Of a DNA stretch of 64,000 nucleotides, positions 16,656-56,039 are shown one piece after another; the stretch's first letter is position 1; each line of letters opens with the position of its first letter. Both the position numbers and the translations under genes were made by a program. The stretch is from Amoebophrya sp. A120 (Eukaryota > Protista > Dinoflagellata). The notes beneath the pieces were generated by a model, which saw only the letters and a program-made list of their open reading frames with translations, was not told the DNA's origin and did no database searches. The stretch covers positions 3,539,838 through 3,603,837 of the forward strand of contig CAJINV010000002.1 in NCBI GenBank assembly GCA_905178155.1, written 5' to 3'.

Positions 16656-18994
16656 ATGAAGCCTAACGACGACGACCCCGCAAGTAGCCTCCCCGCACCA
16701 GATAAAAAACCTTCCTGCTACCGGCTCCAGCCCCTCCCCAACGCCGGTATCGGGTGCGTCACAACAAAGTTTATCCCGAAAGGGACGGTCATTATTGAGG
16801 AAATTCCGGTGATTACCGTGTACGGCCATGAGTTCTCGCCCGAGGGACTCAAAGACCTGGACAGCGACAGAAATAATGACGAAAAGGAAGCCTTAGTCGA
16901 GGGGAAATTTCAGAAACTCTTGGTCGACAGCACGAGAACGAAGATAATATCAACAGCTGGTGGAACAAGCTCAAGCAGCAGCTGCGCAAGCAGTTACTAC
17001 AAGGACCTTTCTCGCCGGTTCAACTGCAATCTGTGCGAAAACGACACGGCTGACGAGTATTTCCCGGAGTGTTTGACCCCGGCGGAATATCCTGTGCAAA
17101 AGTATCGTACTCGTAGTATTGCAATACAAATTAGCTCAGCATGTGCATGACAAATCAATTTGTCATGCTGATTTACCTTAACATGTAGATTTGTAATGCA
17201 TAAGTGCGAATACTACGAGTACGATACTTTTGCACAGGATACGGAAAAGGTCAAACGCATGTACGACATGTTCGCAGAAGAAGATGCTGGTGATACTGAT
17301 GGTGATGCGAAACCGCATGAGAAATCCGATGGCGCCATCGCCAATGAAAATCCGCATGACAAAAAATCCGCCTACGGAATTTTCCTCTCCAACGCGTTTT
17401 CCTTCTACAGCGACCAGGTTTTAGGCTTGGGAGAAAACAACAACAACGGAACAACATCAAACGAAACTTGTCATGCAGAACAACACCAGCCAACGAGCAA
17501 AAACATATTCTGTAGCAAACACGGCAACACAAACAACGCGAGTAACAACGACAACTCGAAAGTGACGGTTGGATTGTACCCGCTTTGTGGGAAACTGAAC
17601 CACAGTATGAGAGTGCACAACTCCCCCTCCCCCTCATTTGTATTGCATGAACAGCAATACAAACACCAGCACACGTGGAGCCTGTGCATGACAAATTCAT
17701 GCGCCTCGTATAGTACTGTTTGGGCTTCCGAAATCTGTCATGCAAACAGTGCCACAGGGAAGCGCTTGGAAATGGAATTGGGGTTTTGCATGACAAATGA
17801 GGGGGAGGGGGAGTTGTGCACTGTCATACACAGCTGCAGTGCGAACTTGGACTTCACGCATGAGAAACTTCGGAATGTGGACCTGGAAGACCACTACGTG
17901 GAAGAGGATCCTGAAGTTTGTCATGCAGAAACACGACGACCAGATGAGCAGCAGCCCTGCTACCTGATGCGCGTTTTCACGACTAGGGATGTCCAACCCG
18001 GGGAGGAGCTGTGCATCTCGTACAACTACGAGCAGTGCTTTGAGCCGAGGAAACAAAGGCAAGAATTCTTCCGCTCGAATTTCAGATTCGATTGCAGTTG
18101 CGAGGCCTGCGGAAATAATGTCACCGGTTGCCGCGAGGGCGAAGTTTGTGATGCAGGCTGCGAACATACCGCCACACTAGCAGCAGCAGACGTACAGCAG
18201 CAGGAAAATAGATCAAACTACATGACAGAAAGCGACAGAAACCGGCGCACCTGCCGGGAAGCGCAGCGGCGTGTCATTGAGCTGCACAACAGCAATGCTT
18301 TGGACGACGAGAAATTACTCGAGCGGGGGGTTGCGAAAGAGATGATAGAATTGGTCGACGAGGTGATTTTCCCGTTATTAGTATCCTGAGTGAAAACGTC
18401 CCCACCCCAGAGTTGTCATGCAAATCTGCATGCCAAAAAAGTCTCTCATGCGGAGCCCCATGAGAGACATATCCTAGTCATGTTTTGGAATTTGTGCCGC
18501 TAGAATCAGCATGACGTGTTAGATCTGTGATGCTTCTGAACTAGCTAAAAAGGACTACTCTACAAGGACAAATTTGTCATGCGAAACAACCAAAGCTGGT
18601 TGATTTGTCTAGCAGATTTCCCATCTTGACTCTGGTGTGGGGACATTTTTGCTCAGGATAATTAGAGAAGGAGAAGCTGCTCAGGCCAGAAGACATTCGA
18701 GATTACGGGAGAATCGCCGCGGAGTGCTGCGATTTCTACTTCCGCGGGCCTTCCGAGGATGCGCGTGCAGACAATGCCGGAAGGTCAAGAAGTTCAAAGT
18801 CCACCGTCAACTACAAAGAGAAACTGAAATATGCCAAGCTCGGGTTGGAAGCCGCGAGGGTTATGGAAGCGAAACTACAGGACCGAGACGACTACGAAGA
18901 AGAAACTGGGCCTGTGTCGGTGCAGTCCTGGAAGAAGATGGTCAAGGCGATCGAGTATCGAATGAAAATGGCAAGGCGGTTTGGGGGAAAATGA
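16656..18994 (+). CDS. SET-domain lysine methyltransferase, SMYD/Set5-like (3 introners)
   Basis: GIGCVTTKFIPKGTVIIEE, GLYPLCGKLNHSCSAN (after splicing), RDVQPGEELCISY, and post-SET FDCSCEAC. Confidence 0.88.
17088..17241. mobile_element. introner, family A
   Basis: DR CGGAA/CGGAA. Confidence 0.92.
17606..17828. mobile_element. introner, family D (in-frame, stop-free)
   Basis: DR CACAG/CACAG; splits the SET motif NHS|C. Confidence 0.92.
18382..18660. mobile_element. introner, family E
   Basis: DR ATTAG/ATTAG. Confidence 0.9.
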
Positions 18995-30060: not shown

Positions 30061-33000
30061 ATGATGCAGAAGAAGAACCCAAGGAATAAACCAGTAATAA
30101 CATCTAGTAGGGAAGCCCCCGATCATGAAATGGACATGATCGACGACGACCAGCAAAAATTTCGCTGCGCCAAGTTCCACGCCTGGCTCCTCGAAAATGG
30201 CACGGACCCAGCAATGCTGGCCCAGACTCAGCCCCACGACTTCCCGGACACCGGTCGAGGTTTGCGAGCGAACCGAGCTTTTCGTCCGAACGAGGTGATG
30301 GTGCGGATCCCGGAAAAAGTGCTCTTGCGGACCGACGACTTTGACCACCCGGTAGTGCGGTTTTTCTACGGGAAGCTGATGGCGGCGGAGGGAGCAGATC
30401 ATCTTCAGGCGAATAAAGACAAAAAATTATCAGCGTCTCCTGGGTCCTCGTCCGCCGCTTCGACAACAAGTTCAGTGCGTCATGACGGGCAATTGTCGTG
30501 GCAAATGCGGTTGCAGAAGAGCTGCAGTTCTTCGTGTGGTTTGTCCGGAACATCGTCTTCCAGTTCTAGCTCCAGTGGAAGAAGCAAACACGGAGCTGCT
30601 GACGTCATGAACTGCACCGCGGAAGATGTGTTGCTGGTCTGTATGCTGTTGTACGAGACACGAGTTGATCAGTGGAGCTCTGATGGAAGAGGTTCCAGTA
30701 CTACTGCTTCTCATGGAGTCGTAGATGAAAGAGAAGTAAAGCATTCTTCCTTTTACCAGCCCTTCCTAAACATTTTGCCAAAATCCTATCCGGGCATTCC
30801 AGCGTGGACATTGTTTTCTACCTCGTCTTGTGAGGACGCAGCATATGCATTGCAAAAATGTCGCGGTCTGGAAACTTGTGATGCTAAAATGTGGATGACG
30901 GAAACAGTTCCGAATGCAAAACAGCATGACAACTTGTCAGAACACTTTCTCATACGCAATCCGCATGAGAAACTGCACTTTTGCATGTACAAAAGAGGCT
31001 GCGACTTTTGTTGGCTATGCAATACAGATTCCCTAGGTATGTTGGAGAGCTAGCATTACAAGTTCGAACCTTCCAGACCCAGACATATTTGTAGTGGATT
31101 CAGCAGCAGGCGGGTTGTTCATCCAGTCGTCGAGCAGCCACCTGGAGGTAGAAGTAGAGTCGAGCCCCCGCGAGAGTAGAAGTTGCCATAGCGAGGTGGA
31201 ACAAGATGATCAGAAGACGAGAACGTCCGCCAAGACTTCTGCTACTTCGCCGTTATCTCGAGCTTTATCTTCGCAATCACCTGAAAGTGAAATAACATCA
31301 TCGTCAAAGCGGGAGAATACAAGTACACGACAGCACATCCTCCCTCTGTGCGAAAAGCGGCAACAGAAGCTGCAGCGCGAATTCCAAACGGTTTTCACTG
31401 TATTTGAGATCGTCGAAGAAATTCTCCGGGATTTTTTCGAACAACATGGTGAACAAGGGGATCAACATTTAATACACGTCACAAAAGCTCCGCGACATCA
31501 AGCGGACGACTTCAATGCAGCAGCCGCAGCCGCGGCCTCGCCAGATGTTGCACATAAGATGAACAAAGCATCTTCCAAAACCTCACCTCGCTTAAACACC
31601 AACCGGTTCCTGTGGGCTTATGGCACGGTATGGACGCGCTCGTGTTTTCTTCGCGAAGAAACAGGTACAGCAGCAGCTTCAAAAAGCACTACAAAGAGCA
31701 GGAACCACACAACTTCATCTAATATTCTTGGCCAACATTCTTCGTCCAGAAAGCACCTCTGTCTCGTCCCCTACGGGGACTTCTTGAATAGCGACCTGAG
31801 ATTCGCGGAATTGCAGGCGGATGACGACGAAGATCTTGTTTCTCCAGAGCAGGGACCGCTGCAACAGGACAGGGAAAATCAAAATGCCGACGTTGCTATG
31901 GGCGATGCAATAACCGCAGACGAAGGTGGAACAACACCAGCAGGAGCTACTGTCGGTGCTTTGTGCGGCTACGAGAAGGGAAGCCGTTCCTACACGTTTC
32001 GCGCCGCGAGATGGATCAAACGAAACGACCAGTGTTTCATCTGTTACAGCACGAAAATGGACAACTTCGATTTCCTCTGCACCTACGGATTCACCTGTCT
32101 ACGCAAGGCGTTTTTCGACGTAGAAAAGTACCGGAAATTTGTCTTGCAGTTTGTGCTACAGGATCAGGCTCAGGATGAGGAACCACGAGATGCTGAAGTT
32201 TGTCCTCATGCGGGCCGCACTAGAGTCAACATGATCCTCTCGGTGTTGCAGTTGCACGGGTTGCTGTGCCAGGAGAACTGGTTTGTGGACTTGACACCAT
32301 CGTCTTCAAGAAAAACGCAGAAAAATAACGCGGTAACAGACGGAGAAGTAGTAGTGGAAGATACAACAAACCGGTTGGAAAGGTACTATCACGAGAAAAA
32401 AGTGTTACAGTTACACATTTGTTGGAGTTTCTGCATCACAAATTTTCTCTGTGTGGCAGAGAAAACTTGTAATGCGAAGATCATAAGGGAAAACAGCAAG
32501 GAAACGAGGCGCCGAAGCATTTCCTGCATGAGAAAGGTTGTCTCTGTTGCCAGTCTTGCATGACAATATGTAACTGTAACACTTTTTTCTTGCGATAGGT
32601 ACCGCTCGGTGTTTAGTCCGGCATTGTTCACTTTGTTCTTCTTGAATGCGCAGTACTACCAGCTGTGTCACCAAATAAACGGAGATGAACAAGATCATGT
32701 TGAAGGAGGTGGAACGTCTGTGTTGCCAACATTGCAGCACTCGCCAGATAGTGCAACATTATCTTCGTCGACGTCGAAGGCAACAACATCCAAGAAGCGC
32801 AAAAACTACGCTACAACCAACGGGACGCAGCAGCTCCTGCACGGAAAAAAGAGGCAGGAAAATAGAAGTTGCTCTCATGCGAAAATGGATACTAGATATG
32901 GCACAACAAGAAGGGCTCCAAGTTTTCCTTGCGGGGGTGGAGCTGCGCAGGTTCAGGATCTCGATCTCGAATCACAATTGGAAATAGCCTACGAGTTGGC

Positions 33001-33679
33001 AGCGGGATCAACATCTCGTTTCATCTCTAGAAGTACAGGATATCAAGTGTAAAAATGTCCGGGTTTGGAAGAATGCAACTTGTGATGCTGAATTTGGATT
33101 CCAAAAAAATCTGTATTGCATGAGCAGCAAAGGGAACGCATTTTTTGCTACGCGGAGAGGGCATTTGTCATGCCGAATAGGCATCGCGAAGCCCTCGAAA
33201 AATCGGTGATGCTAGGGCATGCATCACAGACATCAGGGCTCATGCAACACGTGCATGACAAGTCTCAGAATCTTCCAGACCCAGACATTTTTACAGTTGA
33301 TACAGGAGCCGGAGCTACTACTTCCTCTTCTACTACCCTGCTAGAGCAGGACTTCAACGTGGTCCCCACTTCAACCCCGAGCTCCTGTCTGGAAAAAATG
33401 GTGGAACACCAGGCGAAGAAATTGATACAAAAATTGCTCCGAGACGAGTACGACTACGAGGAGGGTCAAGTTCTGGTACGAGAAATTGAGAAGGAACAAA
33501 GTAGCCGTGGACTATTTTTTTTGTCCTCAAATAATATCAAATGTAAAGCCAGCATGCGTACTTTCACTTCTTACCAGCAAGAACGACAAGAACTCTTGAG
33601 CCGTTTTTACGGTCAATCCACAAGCTGCCAGGATTTGCTGAAACAGGAAAGGGAAGCGCTGGAAGAAATGATAAAATAG
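30061..33679 (+). CDS. SET-domain protein, SETD3/SETD4/Rubisco-LSMT-like (3 introners)
   Basis: FPDTGRGLRA...VRIPEKVLL, SFYQPFLNILP, FLWAYGTVWTRS, LVPYGDFLN, QCFICYS..DNFDFLCTYGF. Confidence 0.82.
30844..31100. mobile_element. introner, family B (ATT end)
   Basis: DR CAGCA/CAGCA. Confidence 0.88.
32387..32597. mobile_element. introner, family F
   Basis: DR GGTAC/GGTAC. Confidence 0.9.
33041..33302. mobile_element. introner, family B
   Basis: DR CAGGA/CAGGA. Confidence 0.9.
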
Positions 33680-34062
33680 AGATTAATGTGGATCATGACA
33701 TCTTGGAGCAGTCTATAAGGTAAGAAGAAGGCTCAAGGTGCAATAATGTTGCGTATCATTTTCTTTACTTATATGTGGCTGAAACAATTGCGCCACCCTC
33801 ATCGTGAGGAATTTTTTCTTTTTGGGGGTCACAAAATGATTGGGGTGTAATGGCAGAATGAGTGTTTTCGCATCGTCCCCCCTCACATCACCACCTCGCG
33901 GGTAAAAGGGAAGCGCGCCGTCTTTGTCTTTTCCGCTGCAAACTCCTACGCGACGACGGAGCGACGAACGATGTGAGGAGCTTCAAATAGACTGATTACC
34001 GAGGGCGCCCCGGCGTAGTAGACTCCGGATCCACCGGGCGCTTCATTGTCAGGTCCGCGAGC

Positions 34063-37000
34063 ATGCTGTTAGTCGTTATCTCTCTTTGCTTTCTTCTCGT
34101 GCAGCACCAGCGGGTCATGGGCGGTCGCAGAGACCCGACCAGGATCCGCAGACCCCACCGAGCCTGCAATCAACCGGTAGCACCAGGCGACTGGGTCTTT
34201 GTACTGACGCAGAACTGTCAACGGGCAAACTTTCGGTACTTGGAGGGTGTTGACCAGTCGGCACCCCTCCAGCAGGTGCAACAGGCGGAGAAAGTCCGCG
34301 GTGTGTTCCAACACATCGCGGCTAACAAGGCGAAGGTCGCGCTCCTTTCCGACGTTCAGTGGAGCGGCGCACGTGGTGCACACATCAAGCGGTACGAGTT
34401 CACCCACGGCCAGCACTACGTTTATGGAGGAGGTAGAGTGGCCATCGTCTTGCACAAGTCCATTCTGTTCGCAGCGGATGGAAAATCTCTCATCAGACCG
34501 GTCGTCAAATTCTTCGGCCCCCGCATTATGGCGCTCTTCATACGCGGGACGTGGTTTGCGGTGGGATACCAGCCAAGCGACACGGTTGCGGACTTCGCAG
34601 AACTGGACCAGTTCTTGCTTTGGCGCGAAAAACTTTTGTTTGCGACAGGTACCAGCAGCATCATCTTCGGCGGAGACTTCAACTCAGCAATTTCCCAGTT
34701 GCCCCGAGGTCCAGAGGATGAAGAGGCAGGCGCTGCAGCGGCGATCGGCTCGGCCCTGCTGTTGGAACCACCCGCGAACCCCCGTCCGGGACATAACAAC
34801 ATGCGTTTTGCAATCGATAACATGTTGTGTATTCCGGACACCTTTAAGTCCATCCACAGAAGAGGCACGTGGAGGCATCCCGCGACCGGGCGATGGTACG
34901 AGATTGACTATTTCTACACATCGCGACAGGTTCATTTTGGAAACGTGAAGACCATCCAGCCCAAATTTCTCACCGACCACCGCGGCAAGCGCATGGCTGT
35001 CAAGCTAGGGCTTTCGCAGAAGGACAAGCGCGAAATCCGACGCCGAGTAATGACAATTACGCCGTCCCCACCGTATGAAGCGCTTCGGCGCGACGAGACA
35101 GCGCAGACGGCTTTTGCAGCGGAGACGGATGCCAACCTTCGGAAGGAGCAGCAGAACGGAGGCAGCAGCCTTGCCAGCAGGTGGGAAAAGTTCACGACAG
35201 TAGTAGCGAACAGCGCGACGGCGGTCGTTCCGGCAAATCAGGAGAGGGGGGCGCAGCAGTATCCCCCGTGGCTGAATGTACGGAAATTCCGCGAATACAA
35301 GAACGAAAAAGAGGACCTACTGTACTCCCGATTTCTAGCAGCGGACGCGAACGAGCGGCAGCAGTACAACAGGAGACTGCGGGCGATCGAGAAAGACTAC
35401 CGAGCTGATGAGAAGTTGGACTTTGAGGACTACATCGACCGAATTGCAGACGAGTGCCAGGCGGAGTATGGACAGTGCGGTAGAATTGACTACGCAAGAC
35501 TACGGCGCACAGGTGTAATCTTCGAACCAACGGCGGGAGCAAGGGTGAGAAAGGCGATCCCGTTCACCGTAGAAGACGCGAAGAAGCACTTCAGCAAGCT
35601 GATGTTGCGAACGGCAGAGGTCCCGCAAGGATTTCAGGAGGCCCTGGAGAGAAACCTGGACCAACTCCCGGAATCTGTGGACCCGATGTGGGGCATACCC
35701 GACGAAGGCGAGATCGCTCACTGTGTCAAACAGATGAAAGACTGCGCGTTGGGAGTGGACCAGATTCACATTGCCCACATCAAGCACCTCGGCGACGACT
35801 CATGGGATTTCTTAGTGAACTTGGTGCAGGATTGTTTCAGAACGAGAACGATTCCGGACGCGGCGCACTTGGTGCGCATGAATGCCCTCCACAAGGGGAA
35901 GAACCTTAATCCGCGGCTGCTAGACAACTACCGCGCCATTGCGGTGGCGACCTTTCTCTCGAAATTGTGCGAGACCATTTTGCAGAAGAGGCTCAAGCAC
36001 TACCTCGAGCGGATCGGTTTCTACCGGGAGACAGCGACGCAGCGAGGATTTCGGTCAGATTGTTCGACGGCGGACTTGGTGATGATGTTGCAGTTCATAG
36101 CGGACCAGACGCGAACAGTAGTGCGGGAGTCGATACTGGATGAGCTAGTTCTAGTGTTGATCGACTTCAAGAAGGCATTTCCAAGCGTGATTCGGGAGCT
36201 TGTATACCGTATCCTGCGGCGTGCGGGCGTTCCTGGCACAAACGTGGAATTCCTGGCGCACTTACACGACAAGGCAACGTTTTACATCATGGTGGACCGC
36301 GAGCCATCTGAAGAGTGGAAAGCAACGCGCGGGATGAAAGAAGGAGGACCATCCAGCCCCGACGGTTACGGAATTCTGAGCGAGATCATGTATCGGGAAC
36401 TGGCGCGCAGGCTAAACGGCATCAAGTTGGCAACGACGGGCGATTTTTTGTCGAAGCTTGCGGCCTTTACGGATGAGCAGAACATCAACCCCGCAGCGGT
36501 GCGCAAGGTGGTCGCCTTGCTTTTTGCAGATGATGCAACGCTCCCGACGACACTGCGGGAGGCGCCAATGGTTGAAAGCACGATCAAGGACGTAGCGACT
36601 ACTTTCGGCCAAGAGGTGCACCCGGACAAGACGGAGCGGCTTCTACTGCAGGGACCACACTTCCACTACCCCGGCCCAAGACAGAAGGATGGGACCCCAC
36701 CAATACCACCCGGATTCGAGGAAAAAGTAAAAGTTGTAGGATGCGAACTGTCTACGTACCACAGCGCAGGAGTGTGCCTGGAGCGGCACTTGAAGAAGGC
36801 GCGCGGAGCGTGGGCGGAGTGGAAGCCGATTCTACTACGGGCGCGCGGACGGATCAACTACTTCAAGCGAGGCAGCCTGATCAAATCCAATGTCCTTTCG
36901 CATGTCTACTACAGCGCGGCAGTGCGGCTGTGGAACGAGCGCAGTTATCAGGAAATCAATGTCTTCATCAACAAGATGCTGCGCACCATCACAGGCACTG

Positions 37001-37911
37001 CGATTCCGGGAATGGTTGGCGTGGCGAACAACTACACGCTACGGAGAAAGTTCGGCATTCAAAGTGCGCGAACAGCAATCGAGAGAATCACTATCGACTA
37101 CCTAGGGCACAAGATCCGGATGGGGCGAGACGAGCCGGGCGAAGGAGTAGAAAAAGGGAACACGTACCGGGCTCGCTTCCCAGACGGGCGCACCGACCAC
37201 CACCTGATCTACGGCAGATTGATCACGGTCTCGGCGGGTGCGCAAGGCAACAGGCGGATGCAGCGCAGGACACTAGCCAAGCAGTGGCTCGAAATCATGG
37301 CGCGCGCGCAACTCCGGCCGGACATGACACGCAAGCAGTGGCACGAGGCGGCTACGCTCTACATTCGCAAGATTGAGGAGCAAGAGCGCCTGGCAGCGTA
37401 CGCTGCGGATGGAGCAGGAAACGTCGAGAAGCGGCGCGACGAGCTGCTTGCTAGTCATGGCGTCAACGCAGGTGCGAGCGAGATACGGCTGCGGAAGAAC
37501 GTACACGAAGAGGGCGAGCTGATCACCAGCCACGCTGTTATCTCGCAGTACCGATGCCCGCACTGTTTTGTGCGTTTTCCAGACGGGGGCAGTGGCTTCA
37601 AGTCACACAAGACTAGGTGCTCCAAGGTCGATTATAGTGGTGTAGACTTTGGCAATGTCATTTGTATAAGGACCTATGCAGCAGGACGAACCCAGTTGCC
37701 ATGGGGCAACCGTTGGCATTGTAAAAAGTGCGGCACTACTGGCACTGAAGGCAAGGCTACTAGTGGGCAGGGCGTTCAATGTGCATTGAAGTTGACGCAG
37801 CATGCTCAGACGTGTGACCCCGCCCAAAAGAAGGGGAGGCGGCAGGACGAGGTCCTGCAGTATATGGCTGACTTGCAGGCGTTTGATGCTGTCAACCCTA
37901 TTGCTGTCTAG
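34063..37911 (+). CDS. APE endonuclease + reverse transcriptase + C-terminal zinc fingers
   Basis: APE motifs: TQN, GGDFNS, IDYF, TDH. RT motifs: NYRAIAV, QRGFR, IDFKKAF, GMKEGGPSSP, LFADD. C-terminal CPHC...H...C and CKKC...H...C. Confidence 0.95.
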   Translation: MLLVVISLCFLLVQHQRVMGGRRDPTRIRRPHRACNQPVAPGDWVFVLTQNCQRANFRYLEGVDQSAPLQQVQQAEKVRGVFQHIAANKAKVALLSDVQWSGARGAHIKRYEFTHGQHYVYGGGRVAIVLHKSILFAADGKSLIRPVVKFFGPRIMALFIRGTWFAVGYQPSDTVADFAELDQFLLWREKLLFATGTSSIIFGGDFNSAISQLPRGPEDEEAGAAAAIGSALLLEPPANPRPGHNNMRFAIDNMLCIPDTFKSIHRRGTWRHPATGRWYEIDYFYTSRQVHFGNVKTIQPKFLTDHRGKRMAVKLGLSQKDKREIRRRVMTITPSPPYEALRRDETAQTAFAAETDANLRKEQQNGGSSLASRWEKFTTVVANSATAVVPANQERGAQQYPPWLNVRKFREYKNEKEDLLYSRFLAADANERQQYNRRLRAIEKDYRADEKLDFEDYIDRIADECQAEYGQCGRIDYARLRRTGVIFEPTAGARVRKAIPFTVEDAKKHFSKLMLRTAEVPQGFQEALERNLDQLPESVDPMWGIPDEGEIAHCVKQMKDCALGVDQIHIAHIKHLGDDSWDFLVNLVQDCFRTRTIPDAAHLVRMNALHKGKNLNPRLLDNYRAIAVATFLSKLCETILQKRLKHYLERIGFYRETATQRGFRSDCSTADLVMMLQFIADQTRTVVRESILDELVLVLIDFKKAFPSVIRELVYRILRRAGVPGTNVEFLAHLHDKATFYIMVDREPSEEWKATRGMKEGGPSSPDGYGILSEIMYRELARRLNGIKLATTGDFLSKLAAFTDEQNINPAAVRKVVALLFADDATLPTTLREAPMVESTIKDVATTFGQEVHPDKTERLLLQGPHFHYPGPRQKDGTPPIPPGFEEKVKVVGCELSTYHSAGVCLERHLKKARGAWAEWKPILLRARGRINYFKRGSLIKSNVLSHVYYSAAVRLWNERSYQEINVFINKMLRTITGTAIPGMVGVANNYTLRRKFGIQSARTAIERITIDYLGHKIRMGRDEPGEGVEKGNTYRARFPDGRTDHHLIYGRLITVSAGAQGNRRMQRRTLAKQWLEIMARAQLRPDMTRKQWHEAATLYIRKIEEQERLAAYAADGAGNVEKRRDELLASHGVNAGASEIRLRKNVHEEGELITSHAVISQYRCPHCFVRFPDGGSGFKSHKTRCSKVDYSGVDFGNVICIRTYAAGRTQLPWGNRWHCKKCGTTGTEGKATSGQGVQCALKLTQHAQTCDPAQKKGRRQDEVLQYMADLQAFDAVNPIAV

Positions 37912-38057
37912 TTCCTAAACACGATGCTAATGCAACTTTTTTGAAAAAACTTGCTTTCTCAGTTGTTCAGAAAAAATCTCCGGTGCGTGTGTTGTTGTTC
38001 AAAGAAAAAGATAGTTTGATGATTCCAATTTGTGCGCCCATTTAAGCAAGATCTGAC

Positions 38058-38140
38058 GCGTGGCGCACACACCCACGCTTGTAGTGGCGCACACACCCAC
38101 TACGACTACATAGTGGCGCAAATACCCACTCCCTGTAGTC
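38058..38140 (+). repeat. three tandem hairpins with conserved GTGG-CGCAMAYAC-CCAC core
   Basis: Stems are GCGTGG/CCACGC, GTAGTGG/CCACTAC and GACTACA-T-AGTGG/CCACT-CCC-TGTAGTC. Confidence 0.85.
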
Positions 38141-38328
38141 CGTCCATGGTTCTGCTCTTCTCTTGTTTCTTCTCTGTCACTGGCCTACTGCATGTTGTTT
38201 GTTGATCGCTTGTAAATCTCGTTTTCCTGCACCCTAGCTAAAATTATTGCTGTATCTTCACCTGCTGTTGTAAGTATCTATTCCCCACCGCTGCACGACA
38301 CGAAAAATCGTCTGCTCACCGTACGAAG

Positions 38329-38937
38329 ATGCAGCGTCGTGTTGAACGCATCGAGAAAGAACGATGCTTGATGGTGCAGTTCAACTCTCCGGAAATCCGC
38401 TGGCCGCGGAAAGACAACTCCCCAAATGGTGACTTTTTGACGAACTTCGACAAGGAGCAGAAGAAGACCTTCCTCCGCCTGATGGGTACGCACTTCCAGG
38501 GTGCCCAGCCATCTCCCAAGAAGATGGAGTACCAAACCAAGGACGACGGATCGTCCGAGCTCACGGAGCTGCAGGACGACTGGTCCGACGCCCAGAAAGC
38601 CGACTTCACCGAAAAGAAGAATGCTTTTGTCGAACTGTGGCGGTCGATTGCGGACGCCCCGGAGTTGGTCGAGTACATCAACTGGAAAAACAACAACTGG
38701 ATCCAGATCGTGTTTCACCTCGGCGAGCATCACAGTAAGGTGATGGATTTGGCCCGTGTTGTCGACAACAACCCCTACCGCAAGTACTTCAGTCGTGGTC
38801 TGAAGCTGAAGCCGATGCAGATGGGTAAGCCGAAGGATGGCGACAACGCTGGCAACGGCGGCGCCAATGGTAACGTCAAGAAGAAGGGCGGCAAGAAGGG
38901 CAAGGGGAAAAACGGGAAAAAGGGAAACGGAAAGTAA
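38329..38937 (+). CDS. 202-aa protein with Lys/Gly-rich basic tail, encoded inside the retrotransposon 3' of RT
   Basis: Intact ORF with strong C/G third-position bias, lying between the RT stop and the (AAATC)n tail/TSD. Confidence 0.85.
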   Translation: MQRRVERIEKERCLMVQFNSPEIRWPRKDNSPNGDFLTNFDKEQKKTFLRLMGTHFQGAQPSPKKMEYQTKDDGSSELTELQDDWSDAQKADFTEKKNAFVELWRSIADAPELVEYINWKNNNWIQIVFHLGEHHSKVMDLARVVDNNPYRKYFSRGLKLKPMQMGKPKDGDNAGNGGANGNVKKKGGKKGKGKNGKKGNGK

Positions 38938-39280
38938 TGACATGATGACGCTAATAATGTCTACCTGCCAGTGCGTGAATCTCATCTACACTTTCTCCGA
39001 CAAAATCAACCACGCGATAACGACTACCAGCAAGCACGACAGTCCTGTGCGTGATTTCGCTGGGGCGCATGTTTGAAGATTATGAAGATTGAGAACTGGA
39101 AGAAATACATGCGTTCACAAATGAACTCCAATCACGTAATGGAGTGATGCAAACACTGATGGTGCTGCCTGGCACCACTTCAGCCAGGAGCACAAGCTGC
39201 TTGACGCCTGCAGTCAAGAGCTACGACAGACAAACGTTTTGAATTACGTGCTACGCACGGCAAACAGACTGTATGTGTGC

Positions 39281-39300
39281 AAATCAAATCAAATCAAATC
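39281..39300 (+). repeat. (AAATC)4 retrotransposon 3' tail
   Basis: Abuts the right TSD and shares ATC microhomology with it. Confidence 0.9.
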
Positions 39301-39307
39301 ATGACAT

Positions 39308-39500
39308 CTTGATCTTCTTGTTATCGCGGCCCGAGATGAATTGTTGGTGGTCCGGATGTGTTCTTAGGTTTGTGCAACTGCATCAACATGTGGGTGGTCC
39401 GGAAATACAGCTCTGGCGAACAGAAAATCCGCCGTTTTACGGTTTTGATGAGGAAGAATAGCGCTACATTCTATATATTTTTCTTGGTCCTAGAAAAAAA
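39308..39500 (+). repeat. duplicated non-coding module upstream of DUF285 genes, copy 1
   Basis: CTTGATCTTCTTGT...CCGGAAATACAGCTC...TTCTTGGTCCT shared with 44008 and 58226. Confidence 0.8.
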
Positions 39501-39927
39501 TATGTACCTGAGATCAGAATGCACATCATGATCGAAGATCCCAAATCCAAATGCTCTCGTGATGAAAATGAAATGACATCATGAAAACCTGCGATCCCAA
39601 ATGTTGACATGATCCAGTATAAAACTACCACACTGCTGACACGGTGCACATAATTCACCGCGTTGAACATGAATCCTCATGCTGTTTCTCATTGTGGGCC
39701 TATCGGTCAAACAAGCACGCTACTCGGTATAAAGTTAGCAATTCAGAACGATGGCAAGAGATGACAAAGGACGAAGGACCAGCATCGATCTCCTACTAGC
39801 AGGGATTTAGTTCTTCTACTTCATCTTGCAAGTTACAGAAGAAACTTGTAGCAGTTTTTGTTGACATCATCTTCAAATCAGAAGTCTCTTTATTTACTCC
39901 GAACAAAGCCTAAGCAAAAGCACCATC

Positions 39928-43594: not shown

Positions 43595-44007
43595 GACGCA
43601 CACGACGAGGAGCAGGAACAACTTCAGCTCTGTCTGCCGCGTAGAAATGTTATGCAAAGTGTGCTGGATGAAGATATTTATAATAACAAGGCTTTTCCAC
43701 GATCGCAAATCGTGGATCCGCAACGATAAATACTTCGTGAAATAAGAACATCGTCTGCAGTGCAGCTGCACAGACCTGGTCGCACAAATCCAATCCTCCT
43801 TTCGTCATGCAGCTTGATGCATCCTTTCGTCATGCAGCTTGGTGTACCACCAAAAATGTCGCTCCCCCCCACCAGATCAAATCGTTTCCGAAGCAAGCGG
43901 TCCGTCGTCGTTCTACATCATTTAGCAACCAAAATGAGATGAATTATGTGAACGAAAAAATGGGCGTTGTCGCTATGGGATGATAAAAGTCGCTCTAGTA
44001 TATCGCT

Positions 44008-44399
44008 CTTGATCTTCTTGTCATCGAGGCCCGAGAATTGTTGGTGGTCCGGAAATGTTGCTTTTACCACGTTTGTGCAACTGCATCAAAATGCGGGTCC
44101 GGAAATACAGCTCTACCGAAAAGAAAATCCGCAGTTTTACGTTTTGATGAAGAAGAATAGCGCCACATTCTATAATTTTTCTTGGTCCTGGAAAAAAAAT
44201 ATAGAATACACGAGTTGTTCTAACCATAAAGGAAAGTAGACGTGCAAGTTATACATACTAAAGTAAAAAGTAGAAGTTTATACAAAAGTTTTGGTTTCAT
44301 TTTCGACCTATTTATTTATCGCTGGCTCTCGAATCTCTAACTCTATCTTAATTAAGCGAGTGTAATCTTCAGCTTTTAGAAGACCACAAGTAGAAGTAA
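44008..44399 (+). repeat. duplicated upstream module, copy 2
   Basis: Similarity to 58226-58599 continues through TTCAGCTTTTAGAAGACCACAAGTAGAAGTA-ATG. Confidence 0.8.
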
Positions 44400-47300
44400 T
44401 GTGGGCAACTATGGTCGAAAAGTCTCGGCTTCACGCCGAGATGAACATTGTGAATTATGTTGGCACGACTACAACTTCTCCCCCTGCGGTCAAGAAAATT
44501 TCTGTCCAGCACTCGAAGACGGGCTGGTCGAGCCTCCTCCGCAACTCCCTTTTCGTGTTGGCAGCCGGTCTTGGTCAAGGTATTTTTTCCGGTGGCAGCT
44601 TTGGTGGAACCGGGGCCTACGGTCTGCGGGCTTCAAGAATCCCGTCGGGAACGATAACGAACAACGACGGCTATCATGAGGCAGCTGACGCCGAAGATAG
44701 TGATAGCGAGAGCGACCATGATGCTATGAGGCCGCAAAAAAAAAACATCCTACGTAGTCGTCATTATTCTGCTTTCAGTATTTTTGCAGCTGATGCAACA
44801 CGTGCTTAAATAACACTTAAATCCTGACTTGGGAAATAATTCTTTGTATATCGTCCAAGGCACAGGCACACACACAACCTGCATCATGTGTGGTAAAAAA
44901 GGTCGACGAATTTACGAATTTCAATTTGGTGCAGGTCCTGCTGCACAACCTTATTTACGCATGACAGATCAAATGCGCAAGAGGAAAAGCGCAGCAGAGA
45001 GCTAGTTGTGATGTTTTTTTTTCCTCGGATATCTCTTCCACCAAGTCGCGAGAAACCATACACGTTTGATTGTTTTTCGTTAGGGTTACAAGAGGGGTGG
45101 TAAGGACAATGGTATTGACAAAAACGTCTGTCGTGAGTAGAGAAATTATACGCAGAGTGCTGGATCTTTATGTCTCACATTTTCCGCAATGCTGGAGGTC
45201 CTGGCATGATTATACACAGAAGGGATTCAGAATCAGATACCCAAATTGCAGCGTGTTTAGCATGACAGAAACAGATCTTAAGTGGTCTTTCCCTTTTCAT
45301 AGTACAAGTTCGCGTGCAAATAAAATTTGGCTCAGTGTTGACTGAGAAAGCACATCTTCACTTTTCATGCAAATAGAGAAGTGTCATAAAGTACATGACA
45401 ATGGCAAAGCATTCTCAATGCCAATGTCGATACCACGAATGTTGCACCTTCATATCCTGCAGTTGGCTTGGCGACCGAAACCACACAGCCCATAGTACAG
45501 ACACCAGTGCCTCCGTTTTGGCCCGTCGACCGCACGAGAGACGAAACCTGGGGGATCACATACGACGATGGCAAATTCGCCCACAGCCACTCAGCGGACG
45601 CTTGGGGCGGCCGTGATGTGATTTCTTGAGGAGAAAAAACGGCTTCTTGCATGGAAGGCAAATGTTGATCATGGTCTACTTCTCATGCTGCTGATCAGCC
45701 TAGACCCCGAGCCGTTACATGGACACTGTTCACACTAGACCACTTGTATCTATACAACGGCCACTAAATCTGCTTCCTTGATTCCACGATCATTATGTCC
45801 CTCTGTCCAAATGAGCTACCAACGACCCACATCGAGCATCCGCATCATGACCTTCCGTTGAGTGAGGTGACGGGCCGATTTTTTTCGCTTTGACAGCGCA
45901 GCGTCTTTCCTCCGACGAGTGGACACGGAACGCATTCGCAGCTTTGATAAACGGACAAAAACGCTTATGGCCTGCTCCTCGGGTGTTGATACATTCTCAA
46001 CTCTTGTATTTCTTTGATTTCTGCTCTTCTGTTTGTAGTTTGTCGGGAGCGAATAAAGCAAGAACCGAAATTGTTTGTATTCAACGCCTCCTCTACCACG
46101 ACCAGCTATCTTCATCTCTTTGGCAGGAATCTAGTAAAGAAAACTGGTTGTGGTTTTGCGATGATGCACAATAAAGGCGTACGTAGAGATAACTATTTGT
46201 ATGCACGGCAGAAGCGCAAGCTCGTCCTGCAACAAGAAATATAGAAACCGCTACTGCAAATGTACTTACCACCTGAGTGCGCCATAACCTTCGTGGACAG
46301 CGACGTCGCGGAGAAGTGGAAACCATTTGGGAGCCGGAAGGAGCTTGAGAACGTGCTCGGCTGGTGGAATCTGCAGGAGGGGCAGCTCTGCACCACTGGC
46401 ATGAGGCGCAACACACGATGGCATCTCAATCTCGACCAATTGAAATTGAGACAAGGGAAATGTCAGAAAGAAATGCAGGAGCGGTACGGCCCCATCCGTT
46501 TCTGGAATGTGTCCCGCGTCGGCGACTTGAGCGATTTGTTTCGCTGCGACATGAATTCGCCCGGTCGCAGCTGGGACAGACCACTCCGCTGGAGCAGTGA
46601 AGTAGCACCCATTCCGTATATTGCCGATTGGAATACCAAAGGCGTGCAGTCGATGAACGGTATGTTCTTCGGTTGTCGAGACTTCGATCAGCCCCTTCGG
46701 TGGGACGTCTCCACCGTGGAGACCATGCACGGCATGTTCACAGACAACGGCGTGCTCAACAGTCTCTCGGCCTTCGCTGCGTCAAATTTTTATCGAGGTG
46801 CCGCTGCTGGCGTAATGGGCCGGAACAGGTTTATGGAATTTCGCAGCCGAGGCGCCTTCCAGGAATTAGCCGCGCACTGGTTTTCTAGTAGCGCCATTGC
46901 ACAGACAGTACTGTGGTCACCTAGAGCAGGCGCGGAGCAGTCGTGGCTGCTCCCAGAGACCGCACCACACCCGACTTTTTTGGTCGTGGACCTATCGACA
47001 ACCGGCGAGACCATATATGCTGAAAATTGGGGGGACTGCCCAGTGAACCATGCAACCGACCTTTTCCGTAAACGAATTCGCGATGGCGGGTGGTGTGGAG
47101 ACTCAGGTATAGTCGGTGACAATGTATTCGACGGCCTTGAGGACTACAGGCTTCTTTACGAGGGCGAGGACATTTTGCCGCTGATGAATCCTTTTGGCCG
47201 GCTTCGTAAAGAGCTTGGGTTTCTTTTTCCTTTGGCGAAGCAAGGTGGTTCCACAGACCCGCGCAGCAGTTACGTTCCGCTTCAGATGTACGTAAAGGAG

Positions 47301-50300
47301 CGCAAATTCGTCTTTTGGCGCGACGTCCGGAATGTACTCGAAGGCCATTTCCTGCGGAGACCCGGTAAACTTTTCGCCGGAGAGACGAGGTTTTTGCCGG
47401 CCGCTGAGTTTGGCCCAGTAGACGAATGGGACCTTTCGCGCGCGCGACATTCTACTCGAGACTCAGACCCTCGGGAGCTCCTGTCTCGGAACGTGACATG
47501 GCAGCTGGGGTTTTATAGAGCGTGCGCGAACGCCCCAGACCGGCTACGCCCCTGGGCAAGTGTGTTTCGCCCAGATTTTCATATTAGTGACTGGACGTTA
47601 CCTGCGTTTTTCGACGCAAAGGGCCTCTTCTCGGGTTGCACGGATTTCGACCAGCCTCTCCGATGGAACTTTCACTTTGATGACAAGGAACGCCTGCGCA
47701 CCGACAAGGCAGGCTACCCTCTGCGGGGCATGTTTCAAGGGGTAGCGATTTTCGACGATGTGGAAGCCTTTGCAAGATCGAAATTTTTCACCGAGGACAC
47801 CAGATCCGCTAACGGCGAAACAACGCGAATGCCTCTTGCGAAGTTCCTGAACCTTCGCCGCAGCAGAGCATTTGATGCCCTTCCCGAGGCGACAGTTCTC
47901 GAAGGCAACCCTGCCACGGTCGCCACCTTCGGGGAACACAGTAAGGCCATGGCGAATAATTTTGCCAACCTTCCATGGCTCTGGGGAGACGCTTACGAGC
48001 AGGCCTGGAGCGAGGAGCACGAAGTCATGCTCGCGTCATTCCAGAAGAACGCTCCAGAAACCCGAATGCAGGTCAGGAGAGCTCGCGCTGCTGGCGCAGC
48101 AGGCGAAACGCAGCAGGCGCTGAAGGCCAGCGCGGCAGGCACTGAACAGAAAACAACCTTCGCGGTCAGCTCCGGTGGAGATGATAACTCATCTTTCCGA
48201 GCCTTCACAAGCCGACAAGAACTGGAGCTGGCATTGCGACCGTTTCTTGGCGAAGACGCAGGAATCCACGCCAACGCCCTCGGTTGGCCTTTGGCGGCGG
48301 GAGAAACTGTTGCGGATGTGGAGAACCGCCACGGCCCGGCTAGCTCATGGAATGTGGCGCGAATCCAAGACCTCAGCTTCTTGTTCGGAAAACTTTGCCG
48401 AAAATTCTCTGACAATCCCTGGCGCCGTATCTTCGGACCCGGAAGCACGCGCCGACTTAGCATAAAATATTGGGACGTGAGCGGTGTGGCCAATATGAAA
48501 GGGATGTTTGACGGGTGCAGCGATTTCAACGACCATATAGGGTCTTGGGATGTCGGGCAGGTTCGCAACATGGAGGCCATGTTTCGTGATGCTAAAAGTT
48601 TTGATCAGCCAATTCGCCTTTGGGATGTTTCGCTGGTCGCCGACATGGGACAAATGTTTCTGCGGGCGTATAGGTTCAACCAACGGATAGACCGCTGGGA
48701 CACCCGCCGCGTCACAAACATGGCGTGGATGTTTTCCGAGGCCAGGGCCTTCAATAGAGTCCTGCATTGGGATGTGAGCAGTGTGACAAACATGCACGGC
48801 ATGTTTTCGGTACCGAAGCAAAACCCTGAGGCAGACATAATCTCTTCTGGTGTCTAAGATTTCCCCAACAACTAGCAAAAAGACACAGCATTCGTATGCG
48901 TGCTGCTGCTGCCCTACTGGCGCATGACCATGAGACGAAATCAGAGTGGCCCCGTCTTTACCAGTCGCACCCTGCCAGCGAAAAAAATAATTCGATGCTG
49001 AGTTCGCGTTGCTGGTCAGTCAACATGTCACAGCGCAATGATGTCATAAACAAAGCACGCAACTATGTTGTGCTCACAACGCTATTTTCATAGTTTTGAA
49101 AAATTCCAAAGGTGTGTTTTGCCGAGGAGGGTTTTGTGCTTGCATACAGGCTGGCAGCTTCTTACAACCACCCACTGCACTTTTGGGACGTGCGTCGTGT
49201 CACCAGCATGACTGCTATGTTTTGGAGAGCGCGGGCTTTTAATCAGCCTCTGAGGCTGTGGCGAGTCGGGAATGTAACCAGCATGGAAGGGATGTTTTAC
49301 GGCGCCCGGGATTTCAATCAGCCTCTCGACGGCTGGGACGTTGCTTCCGTAACAAATACGAAACGAATGTTCGACCACGCAAAAGCATTATCCTGTGCAA
49401 AAACGCCCCCACCTCATAGTCACATTTGCTACACAAGGACAAGCCAAGGTGGTTTACCTGTTGCGCATTACAACTTTAGGCATCTATTGTGATCGTGATT
49501 AGCCACTGCAGTCGCGTCACATGATGAAATCCAATAATCTTATTCTGATTATCGCCTGGCACTCGAGACAGACAGGACTAGAAAATGCTTCTCATGTGGC
49601 TGCGCATGAGAAACAGTTCAAAAAGCATGTAGATCAGCACGAAAACAAATATGGGGCGGTGGCGCTTTTGCTGAGGATAAACATTCAACCAGGATTTGTC
49701 GTCGTGGAATCTGAACCTGCAAGACGGCGGCGTGCTCCTTTATGCCTAACAAATCCGTCTGGGTCTGGATTTGTGATGCGAGATTCGGAAGTAGGCAATA
49801 AGCATTAGAGAAGTAAATAACGCATGAATGTGATTGGCTAGCTCTTTTGTCGTGCTGGAAGCCAGTTTGTCATGCGTTTTTCGAATGAGTCTGCTCTGCA
49901 GTAGGCCTTGCAAAATTTTTGATGCTGCTATGCCGTACCAGAGGATAGTCAATCTGCGACGCAACTCTCAGCAACGCAATTTTTCAGACCCAGACAAATT
50001 TGCAATGCATATCCTCGCTGCAGATAACATGTTTGGAGATGCGGAGGCGTTTCGCGCGGCCGAAAGACTACGTCCCGACCAAGTTGTGGTGCTGGAAAAG
50101 ATGCAGGCCTTTGCCTCCCGAAAGCATTCTGAAACGGAAAGTGGCAGTGCGACCCGCGCGGGCCCGGAGAGTTGTATTACACCTGTTTCAAACATCCAAG
50201 CGAAAAAACAGGAGCAAGTGGTCGAGCAAGATCAGAGGCCGGAAAATGGCGTGGCTGCAGAAGTGCAATCCGAGCCAGCATTCCTCAAGGGCGAACACTA

Positions 50301-53300
50301 CGTAGAAAAAGCTCGTCCACCGGGTAAGGGGAACGACTACTCCTCGACACCATCTGTATTGCGGTGAAAACCCCCCTCCCCATACTTACCGAAAAAGTAC
50401 GCCTCGGAAAATTTGTAATGCTGATTTGTGGCTACAAAGCGTCTCTGTCTGGCATGCAAGCAACTCAACAGGCTGTGCGTTATGCATGCGGTTTGTGATG
50501 TTGTTGGGCGTACATCGTAGACGCTTCTCCTCCTGCTAGGCTCCTACGTAAAAAGCCTTTCACCTCTCAGGCCTGGTATAATATGCCTGCAGTCCTTTAC
50601 TGCAAGACAAATCTGAATTGTGTACGCAAGCCGAACATCAGAAGCCGCGTTTTGATATTATGAGGAGGGTGGAATTTTCCTTTTCATAGACTACTCAGGA
50701 AGAGTTCGTAGAGATGCCCACGAGGATGCAGCTGAACCTGCAAGACGAAACTGTGAAAAACAAGACGCCGCTCAATTTGCGAAAGAAAACTACCATCGGT
50801 GGTCGTCGAGGTTTGAAGAAAAAGGCTGCAGGATATCAAATGTAAAAATGTCTGGGTCTGGAAGATTCTGACACTTGTCACGCACGTTTTGCATGAGCCC
50901 TGATGTCTGTGATGCATGCCCTAGCATCACAGATTTTTTGAGAGCTTCTTGATGCCTGTTCCGCATGACAAATGCCCTCTCCGCGTAGCAGAAATTGCGT
51001 TCCTTGTTTTGGTACTCATGCAATACAGATTCTTCTGGGATCCAAATGCAGCATCACAAGTTGCATTCTTCCAGACCGAGACACTTTTACATTTGATACA
51101 GGAGGTGGCATCGCGACAAGCTCTTCCGTGGTCCTCCTCGGCACAAATAGGACGAACAAGACCTGCGGCGGGATGACGAGTCGCAGTGCATCATCAAAAA
51201 AGCCCGGAGGTGTGGTCGCTTCGTCGAAATTTTTGAAGACGGCGAAGAAGAAGAGCAGGGAAAAGAGCACTTCTGTCAGGCGGCCCCGGATGAATAAAAC
51301 GAAGATTTTTAGCGCAGCTGCTTCCGCGGAGCAAGCTTCGGAGAAAAAGGAAACGAACGATTATCAAATGCAAACAGGTCTGGGTCTGGTGGAAGACTGC
51401 AATTTGTCATGCTAAGTCGGGATCACAAAAATCTATGTTGCATGGACGCTAAAAAAAAGGAGGTGCTCCAGGCTGGCTAGGCAAAAGCACCAGGATTTCT
51501 CATGCGGAATAGGCATGAAGAAGGTCTCGCAGAATTCGTGTGCGTGGTCAGCGAGATGCATGGCAAATATTGCCTTCTTCCAGACCCAGACATAGTTGCA
51601 GTTGATATCGATGCGGGAACAACACCCACCACCGGAAGCTCTGCATCGGACGAAGATGACAGCGGTAGCAATCCGTCGTCCAGCACGCCGCGTTTTTCCA
51701 GCCCGAATGATCCATACCAGGATCTGTCGAAGCGAGCTTCGTCTGGTGACTCAGCGGAGGATGTTGAAGGACCACGAGAAGTAGCGCGGCCCGGCGCTGG
51801 AGGCGATCTGCTGAGGACCGCCCTGGAGCCGTGGGCACTGTACCTGACGCCCAAACAGAAGGAGGCTTTGCGCAACGTCGACCGCGCGACCCAACGGTTG
51901 GTTGACACGCACCGCCAGGAAGGAACCTGGAAGGCCTTCGAGAGCCGAGACGAACTCGTCCAAGCGCTCTGGGTTTGGAATATTGATACTATTAGAGCTA
52001 ATATGCCAAACCTAGAGCGCCGAAGAGCTCTATTAAATAATGGAGCCGATCCGTGGGGAGGTAAGTCCGCAATACAATTCAGACGGGAAATCCAAGGCAA
52101 GTATGGTCCAGTTCGGTTCTGGGACGTGTCTCGCGTCGCCAATCTAGACGGGTTGTTTTCGTGTGATGCCGGACGGGGAAGTTACGTCCCGTGGAACCTG
52201 GGATCCTTCATTCCGCCCATCTCTGACTGGAACACGCGTGGCGTGCGGAGCATGCGCTCCATGTTTAAGGACTGCCGCGACTTTGACCAGCCTCTGCACT
52301 GGGACCTCACCACCGTCGACGCAATGCAAGGTATTTTTGTCGGGGTGCACGCATTCCAGGATGTCGGCACGTTCGTGTCTTCGGCATTTTTCTCGGCAAG
52401 CTCTCCTGCTGGGGCGACCCGACAGGCCGCGGCAGAGGCGAGGCGCGAAAGGTTCATGGAGTTCCATCGCCATGGTGCCTTTGAGGGTATGCTCGCCTCC
52501 GATTTCCCCACGATTCCCCTGGCCAAGAACTTTTTGTTTGGAGTGGCACAAGACGCCGCGTTGGCTACCGAAGGGTGTGGCAATAAAAACGGTCTTCAGC
52601 TGCATCACGACCGTGCTGACCTAGCGTCGGAACAGCCTGAGTTGAGCGTATACACTGTTGGCGGCGCAGTTGTCAGAACATTCGACTTTGCCGAGTGGCA
52701 GCCGCTCTCGGCGCGAGAGATCGGAGAACAGATCGCAAATGCCATCATCGCATCTCAAAAGAAACGGCGCCAGCGCATTCTGAAGGAGTTAAGTCTCCTG
52801 TATGGATCTCAAGATCTCCTATCGCTTTTGGGCGAGACGAGAATCAGTGACGTATTGCTTTCTCCCGCGAATACGGCATGTCGATCGGTCGGCGCCAGCA
52901 TCTCTCTCCAGGCCGCTGTCAAGGGCTATGACTTTCAAAGCTGGCGTGAAGTTGCAGAGGCCATGAAATTCTGGCAGCGCGGTGAGATCCAAAAGAAACT
53001 TTGGACGCATCGAACAAGAGACTATTTTCGAGATCCGGAAATGGGTGACGACGAAGCTGCAGCGAAACGACAAGAAGTACGCACTTGCTCATTTATCTCT
53101 CTTCATCGACGTCGCGGCCCTTCGCAGAAGTACTAGCTCGATATTTTTTGCACGTCGTCCCGCGGCTCGATATTTTTTATTTTTTGTGTTTGTTGTAATT
53201 AATCACTGCGCTCAGCATTGGCATCACATCACACGCAGTGCCCAGCGGAGACCACAGCCGCGGCCTGGCGACTAGATTATGTATGAGTCCGCTACCCTTG

Positions 53301-54454
53301 CATCCCCAGGCCCAGAAGAACATGACAACGTGATGTGCCATCATGCAATTAGACCCGCGTGCTTTTGTATGAGAAAGCGGGAACAACGATCTGTCATTAC
53401 TATGCGCACTGCGACGAGAGAGAGATATGTCGATTCTCGGGCATATGTGGTCGAGGAACGCTACGGCCCAGTACACCAGTGGGACTTCTCGCTGATCAAA
53501 GGGAGTTATCACCAGATTTTCCACGGTCTGCCGTTTACGGCCCTCTGCCACGCCGTGCGTTTACCAGACCGTGGACCGAGACCGCTAGACAAACTCTCTG
53601 AACCGGCAACGACGACGCCCTGGTCTGATGTATTCCGAAACGATTTTCTTATCACCGACTGGAAGTTTCCCCTCGCCGGAAACAATTTTGAAAACCTGTT
53701 CACGGGTTGTACAGATTTCGACCAGCCGCTCCGGTGGAACTTTGACTTTTGTGACTCAAATTTGCCTACGCCGCGGAAGGACATTATAGCGGGCACATGC
53801 CTACTAGTTCGCAGGGGTTTTCTTAATGGAAGTATCGGCAGCGAATCAAAGCTCGGGCCTGAATTCTTGTGCTCTCATCTTGGCATGAACTACATAAAGC
53901 GTGTAGTAGCTCTACAACAAAGCCATCAAAAAGTACTTACATACCAAATGAAAATAGTAGGCATCAATCTACACGACCGGCAAGTAGTCCTGGGTACTAG
54001 ACGCCTTCGCGGGAAGTATAGTAGAACTCCAATTCGTTTCCCGTGGCGCAAAAATTGCGCTCGGGCGTCTCCCTTCTGAAAAGAAGAGCCGCTCTGGGAT
54101 CATTTTCCGCAGCAAGAGAATAAATGAATTTTACACAAAATAAACAAGAATTCCACGTGGCCTGCAGTTTTGCTCTTCACACCTTTGTTTACAAATGTGG
54201 CCATATTTGAAGACCTAGAGCGCTTTTGGAATTCCAAGTTTTTTCTCGAGGACATCGTCGAGGGCGACCAGAAAAAGCAAATGCCTTTCCGGAAATGGAT
54301 GCAGCTTAATATGTTCGGGGCGTTCGACTCCTATGGACCACATCGATATCTGGCGGTCAAGAGTGGCTTTGGCGATATGAGGTTCTGGAACCTGTGGCCG
54401 AAAGCAGATCGGGAGCAGGGGTGGAAGATGGCCGGTCTGCTAAGAAGTACATAG
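44400..54454 (+). CDS. giant multi-module DUF285/BspA-repeat protein (N-terminal exon 44400-~44755; main body 46260-54454)
   Basis: WDVxxVxxMxxMF...FNQPLxxW repeats. The frame is continuous from 46260 to 54454 after removing 8 introners. The link between 44755 and 46260 is unresolved and the 3' end may be truncated. Confidence 0.75.
48811..49146. mobile_element. degenerate introner (TAC..ATA)
   Basis: Residual TIR AAAACCCT/AGGGTTTT; removal restores MFS|LAASYNHPLHFWDV. Confidence 0.75.
49389..49679. mobile_element. introner, family E-like
   Basis: DR AGCAT/AACAT; removal restores AKAFNQDLSSW. Confidence 0.85.
49741..50011. mobile_element. introner, family B
   Basis: DR TCCTT/TCCTC. Confidence 0.85.
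50357..50688. mobile_element. introner, family C
   Basis: Body matches the 15168 element; DR decayed (ATCTG/GACTA). Confidence 0.82.
50834..51098. mobile_element. introner, family B
   Basis: DR CAGGA/CAGGA; empty site in the paralog at ~63870. Confidence 0.92.
51362..51607. mobile_element. introner, family B
   Basis: DR ACGAT/TCGAT; empty site in the paralog at ~59240. Confidence 0.9.
53078..53445. mobile_element. degenerate introner (TAC..ATA)
   Basis: Residual IR TATCTCTCT/AGAGAGATA; removal restores KRQE|VEERYGP. Confidence 0.7.
53785..54181. mobile_element. degenerate introner (TAT..ACA)
   Basis: -1/+4 removal restores DMFTNVAIF, as in the paralogs. Confidence 0.55.
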
Positions 54455-55603: not shown

Positions 55604-55728
55604 TTTCTCAAGCCGTGACAGAATCTCGACCGAACTGTGGTATGACCGTATGTATCCCGCTTGATAAAACCGCTTTCTCAAGCCGTGATAGAACCTCGAC
55701 TCAACTGCAGTGCCGTACTATCCCGCTT
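55604..55728. repeat. imperfect ~70-bp tandem duplication
   Basis: TTTCTCAAGCCGTGA...TATCCCGCTT occurs twice (55604 and 55674). Confidence 0.75.
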
Positions 55729-56039
55729 TTACTACGCCTTGGCGTAGTAGAAGCAAGGTGCCGTTGCGAGCTGTGATTTAGTTTTTTCACATGGTAGTTA
55801 GATCTCACGCACGCTAGCAGTCCGCTCAACAACTTTCAAGAGAGGCGAAAAACGAGTAGTTTATACAAATCCCCGGGCTGTATGGGGTGCCGCTCTTTTA
55901 GACACGGAAAGGAGGGCGGCGTGGCGCGGCAAAATTTGGCGTCTTTGATTCGACGACCAGGTTCGCCGATACCGAACAGTAGAAAGTCAAAAGAAGAGCA
56001 GACCTTTTTTTTATCGTTTAGCGCTTCATCCTCGTTCTC

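Follow-up and report, generated by a model that had tools for sequence, protein, structure and literature searches.

A LINE of the dinoflagellate Amoebophrya with a conserved accessory gene downstream of its reverse transcriptase

Long interspersed nuclear elements (LINEs) have been described as carrying open reading frame (ORF) 1 first and ORF2 second, with the ORF1 protein (ORF1p) coating the RNA that encodes it. Can such an element carry its accessory gene at the opposite end, behind the reverse transcriptase (RT)? The question is raised by 64,000 nt of Amoebophrya sp. A120 (contig CAJINV010000002.1, positions 3,539,838 to 3,603,837; hereafter the window, whose own coordinates are used throughout), where a preliminary description made from the letters alone had proposed a bicistronic element whose 3' ORF is either an ORF1 equivalent or stable cargo. 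The layout of the element, its several copies and the adjacency of both genes in a second Amoebophrya genome, AT5.2, support this proposal. Our preferred reading, to which we assign a probability of roughly 60%, is an intact LINE that has no upstream gene and stably carries a downstream gene of 202 amino acids (ORF202), which is predicted to be RRM-like and likely encodes an ORF1-type RNA-packaging protein.

Boundaries and enzyme gene of the element

Both ORFs lie on the same strand (34063-37911 and 38329-38937), and each is open. They are enclosed by a 14-mer direct repeat, the target-site duplication (TSD), with no third copy in the window, and when 20,000 random windows of 716 nt were compared with the post-tail sequence, the longest match was 8 nt. 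The perfect 14-bp TSD first described holds as an exact and unique pair, but its 3' copy shares its first 3 nt with the final unit of the tail, which gives a duplication of 11-14 bp. The element has no terminal repeats and ends in a simple-repeat tail, the (AAATC)4 already recognized in the preliminary description. Its features are as follows (UTR, untranslated region):

33692-33705, + strand: 5' TSD copy, exact 14-mer, 13 nt past the host-gene stop codon
33706-34116, + strand: 5' UTR without an ORF (ORF list, stop scan), ending in a pyrimidine tract and AG
34117-37911, + strand: APE-RT gene with two C2HC fingers, 1264 aa, open from 34063 (Pfam, motifs, homologs)
37912-38328, + strand: 417-nt spacer with hairpin repeats and an AG-free pyrimidine-rich zone, of putative function
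38329-38937, + strand: 202-aa accessory gene with RhxxhE helix, predicted RRM-like core and K/G-rich tail
38938-39280, + strand: 3' UTR, whose last 150 nt fold better than shuffles
39281-39300, + strand: (AAATC)4 tail (repeat search)
39298-39311, + strand: 3' TSD copy, exact 14-mer

The 5' junction is bridged by a contig of single-copy depth (33278-33847) with 0 differences. Another contig of single-copy depth starts at 39271, 30 nt before the tail end and one nt short of the rule used to call a junction bridged; such a start would be expected if sister copies share sequence as far as the tail end. At the 5' end of the element, where bin depth is 79 and the unique contig reaches 33847, sharing with other copies is evidenced only from ~80-110 nt past the 5' TSD onward.

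As the preliminary description held, there is no room for an upstream ORF1: the 357 nt preceding the RT ORF contain stops in all three sense frames and no ATG-initiated ORF of at least 60 aa, so the arrangement of the two-ORF LINEs (L1, Jockey and I groups), with ORF1 upstream of ORF2, is not found here. The long ORF encodes 1282 aa from its first ATG (34063), the length originally given, and 1264 aa from its second (34117). Judged by sequence, the second is most likely the start, because the alignment with the homolog P0005 begins there (its residue 3 aligns to residue 2 of the 1264-aa form) and the 18 codons between the two ATGs are a pyrimidine tract (25/30 pyrimidines) with a terminal AG. 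The proposed order of endonuclease, RT and zinc fingers was borne out. Pfam gives an RVT_1 match (E 4e-11) and an Exo_endo_phos match below its cut-off (E 0.013; both homologs give similarly weak matches), and the ORF profile matches R2 and L1 ORF2p structures. GGDFN, EIDY and TDH, which we take to be endonuclease motifs, are present together with FADD and two C2HC fingers, and all are kept in P0005.

RT homologs (P0001, P0005 and P0002) show 40-48% identity. Among the 22 ORF substitutions considered, a subset of 759 variant rows, 21 are listed for the RT, of which 16 are synonymous where 23% would be expected (p 5e-7); the only one listed for ORF202 (n = 1) is synonymous too. With an RT, an N-terminal endonuclease, a tail plus TSD and dispersed copies under selection, the element represents, in intact form, an APE-type LINE family of low copy number.

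Other copies and relatives of both genes

Evidence for further copies comes from contigs of run X1, which may derive from the same sample as the window. The unique flanks have a mean depth of 28-30, compared with ~137 over the RT and ~131 over ORF202 (71-146 in the four bins of 38081-39124). Summed contig depth does not equal copy number; taken as a rough guide, it points to some 4-5 copies containing both genes. The RT is matched by contigs of ~86% and ~99% identity, and the spacer and position 38364 are represented in three to four variant contigs. In one contig 37903 is joined to 38041, one carries a 30-nt in-frame duplication within the K/G tail of ORF202, and one skips 38834-39017. At position 38956, X1 and X3 contigs both read another base, which reflects either a misassembly of the window or the presence of a sister copy that is nearly identical.

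ORF202 belongs to a diverged family. Exhaustive search retrieved eight homologs (31-38% identity) and profile search one more, whereas word-index search recovered none; the homologs share the core, and most keep the basic K/G tail. One of them, P0007, is listed in EukProt AT5.2 as g4172.t1, where g4171.t1 corresponds to P0002, the RT homolog of 42-46% identity. The identifiers are consecutive, and therefore the RT and accessory genes are neighbours in this second, diverged Amoebophrya genome, as read from gene identifiers that carry no order. This provides the linkage to an RT that had been suggested as a check. The closest named homologs of both element proteins come from Amoebophrya. The remaining ORF202 homologs sit on contigs of 1.1-4.3 kb, and the related RTs P0001, P0004 and P0005 (40-48% identity) lie on contigs of 5257, 5427 and 6912 nt, which have space for an accessory gene.

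Could a host gene merely lie beside a single-ORF LINE, or have been dragged along once by 3' transduction, as the preliminary description had allowed? No X1 contig listed for another copy spans both genes, and most homologs lack a known genomic context, so the suggested check for the 3' ORF in other copies was answered by depth and by variants over both genes, not by a spanning contig. However, ORF202 equals the RT in depth (4-5x the flanks) and occurs in several variants, one with a frame-keeping indel; the two genes adjoin in AT5.2 at 32-38% protein identity; and the unique TSD lies outside both. We regard a one-off event as largely refuted and very improbable. These observations confirm that an element with a gene behind its RT is real and stable.

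A different possibility is that most relatives have an ordinary upstream ORF1 and this subfamily alone was reordered, for example when two head-to-tail elements gave rise to a unit with new boundaries, a recut pair. The AT5.2 identifiers give adjacency and not order, the predicted fold is ORF1-like, and the spacer resembles a separate 5' UTR, all of which would suit such a history. Yet the ~86%-identical copies reach nearly the same 5' end and extend into the spacer, and the AT5.2 numbering, RT then accessory gene, fits the same order if that element lies on the + strand. We therefore consider a recut pair improbable.

Beyond these relatives, neither ORF202 nor the RT alignment had a match when metagenomes were scanned. 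Viral contigs yielded no ORF202 homolog and one distant RT, and prokaryote genomes yielded six distant LINE RTs (21-28% identity), none accompanied by the accessory gene; seven distant LINE loci were compared with the ORF202 family profile, and none matched. LINE ORFs of eukaryotic type (880-1153 codons) are present on six contigs (L002-L007, 5-7 kb) of bacterial metagenome-assembled genomes, which are likely contamination of bacterial bins.

The accessory protein and its expression

The intact, codon-biased ORF of the preliminary description was recovered as such: its GC content at synonymous third positions is 0.76, compared with 0.67 in the RT and 0.46-0.68 in nine host ORFs. When the 3' region was shuffled 3000 times, an ORF of this length appeared once. 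An antisense ORF of 235 aa over ORF202 is treated as a shadow frame because the protein family matches the sense frame.

Which function might ORF202 have? Its best sheet-containing structural matches are RNA-binding RRMs, among them three L1 ORF1p entries, and the predicted RRM-like core is interrupted by a hairpin-plus-helix insertion of 45 residues. An N-terminal helix of nine residues precedes the core, with an RhxxhE motif in 5 of 10 family members, and the K/G-rich basic tail anticipated earlier is confirmed as a disordered low-complexity K/G/N segment (residues 156-200, pLDDT <50). The type II ORF1 of human L1 comprises a coiled coil, an RRM and a C-terminal domain, according to the available parts of PMC4120745 and PMC5940361. 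Unlike L1 ORF1p, ORF202 has, in place of a long coiled coil of seven heptads, a helix of about one, carries the core insertion, and ends in the disordered tail where L1 ORF1p has a folded C-terminal domain. It also lacks the CCHC zinc knuckle of type I ORF1, having one cysteine. The ESM Atlas gave only unnamed small clusters below the recognition bar, and for the family member P0009 no structural match above TM 0.4. A weak Foldseek row pointing to an HUH/relaxase was rejected, as neither HUH nor a tyrosine is conserved.

The 3' gene might instead be stably carried as a passenger whose task is a different one, for example anti-silencing or target choice, in an element that moves without ORF1 like a single-ORF RTE. 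Some RTE clades lack ORF1, as the consulted text of PMC4120745 states, and dinoflagellate LINEs can carry unusual cargo, namely a DNA methyltransferase (DNMT) gene in the ORF1 position in the accessible portion of PMC5890265. Nevertheless, the best matches are RNA-binding proteins, the protein has a basic tail and the RhxxhE motif, and the five invariant residues of the family form no catalytic set as judged by eye. We consider a passenger role unlikely, though less so than a recut pair. The RRM-like fold suggested at the outset was thus recovered, with L1 ORF1p among the matches, at weak scores and with a large insertion in the core; both points weigh against an ORF1-type protein and favour a passenger.

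How would the 3' gene be expressed? Three 20-nt repeats in the spacer (38058-38130), each folding as a small hairpin, could be promoter boxes or binding sites of the accessory protein. A 99-nt AG-free pyrimidine-rich zone extends up to the AG at 38236; of all pyrimidine tracts on the + strand, one of the strongest two lies in this zone. We infer that the spacer provides the 3' gene with a promoter or a trans-splice acceptor. Run X3, guessed to be RNA (one of its contigs lacks the host introner), covers ORF202 and the 3' UTR at depths of 3-11, the spacer at 0.4-1.8 and the RT in just 2 of 14 bins; three further runs of the same sample contain a similar 17-18% of the element's words. Together with the spacer features, this coverage fits a separate mRNA made by an internal start or by trans-splicing. 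A 3' bias accounts for it equally well, and contigs cannot reveal RNA ends. LINE transcripts of Symbiodinium are 3'-biased in the part of PMC5890265 available, and Amoebophrya-like syndinians, in that of PMC7789003, use spliced-leader trans-splicing and have genomes with introners and some non-LTR elements, one supplement of which contains no LINE terms. The raw RNA runs X8 and X9 cover almost only introners, not the host gene, and are uninformative on expression. Folding of the last 150 nt of the 3' UTR exceeds that of shuffled sequence (z -3.1, the best value among nine stretches tested); Rfam gave one chance match below threshold.

By analogy with other LINEs, full-length element RNA would be translated into the APE-RT, which would nick the target, reverse-transcribe from the structured 3' end with its (AAATC)n tail and leave a TSD. 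The accessory protein probably uses its RRM-like core and basic tail to bind the element RNA, and the RhxxhE helix may allow it to trimerise. There is about an even chance that it is made from its own shorter mRNA, by a start in the spacer or by spliced-leader trans-splicing at AG 38236.

Surroundings, known elements and implications

The host gene upstream (31037-33679) has no Pfam match; its introner at 33034-33300 is missing in an X3 contig, which stops at 33711 and so includes the first 6 nt of the element. The window contains ~38 dispersed repeat segments of 85-560 nt from several families, many with terminal inverted similarity, and over the repeat at 33035-33315 X1 contig depth reaches ~390,000 compared with 30 for unique DNA. 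At least four DUF285 ORFs are arrayed across 46245-63651, with repeats at 44003-44599, 58221-58806 and 39307-39500; the repeat near two of these ORFs also forms the right flank of the element, its similarity beginning inside the 3' TSD. Farther right, 39647-39907 (X1 depth up to 86) is another low-copy repeat, not seen elsewhere within the window. Host ORFs at 3174-4307, 10067-10741 and 17172-18389 match PP2C, DUF4833 and SET. Introners are absent from the element itself (3.7 expected, Poisson p about 0.03), as first observed, but this is weak evidence of the young insertion then proposed: the window has two further repeat-free gaps (6.2 and 5.9 kb), and passage through spliced RNA would likewise strip introners.

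In an RT tree of unlabelled LINEs, the element and two relatives form a fully supported long branch of their own. RTE elements have tandem-repeat tails, a TW-HP...W..IDY endonuclease motif and a short non-coding 3' end. The missing upstream ORF, the repeat tail and the motifs suggest an RTE affinity, and a short 5' UTR before the APE-RT is likewise shared with that group; unlike RTE elements, 1.4 kb follow the RT stop and contain a conserved gene. From two-ORF LINEs of the L1 type the element differs in placing its accessory gene 3' of ORF2, behind the 417-nt spacer. SymbioLINE-Dnmt of Symbiodinium (PMC5890265, accessible part) is likewise a dinoflagellate LINE whose transcripts are 3'-biased and whose second gene is unusual and under selection, but its methyltransferase gene lies in the ORF1 position upstream of the RT, whereas here an RRM-like gene lies downstream. 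L1 also has additional ORFs, ORF0 and r1/r2; unlike ORF202, those described in the available text of PMC5203782 run antisense, lie near or over ORF1 and belong to elements that retain an upstream ORF1. Long terminal repeat (LTR) retrotransposons with 3' ORFs (PMC5408684, in the portion consulted) likewise carry a further gene stably downstream of their enzyme gene but belong to a different order and keep gag upstream. An ORF3 in TRE5-A, considered as a precedent, was not borne out, two ORFs being described in the accessible text of PMC5633606. Our literature search, with Repbase and most subscription journals outside its scope, found no LINE with an ORF1-like gene 3' of ORF2.

More tentatively, and at less than even odds, this may be a cross-species LINE lineage of parasitic dinoflagellate relatives with reversed gene order, in which an ORF1-type RRM protein made from a separate spliced-leader-capped mRNA loads in trans, unlike the cis packaging of L1. 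What this case adds is the linkage to an RT in a named genome and, from the predicted fold, a lead to ORF1p. A likely role is also given to an unannotated protein family of marine protists. If the reversed order works, neither the position of ORF1 nor co-translation would be required, and the element would offer a natural test of the open idea, put forward in the available parts of PMC4120745 and PMC5940361, that ORF1 proteins are interchangeable modules gained reticulately. The finding also suggests that hosts with trans-splicing allow retroelements to rearrange their gene order.
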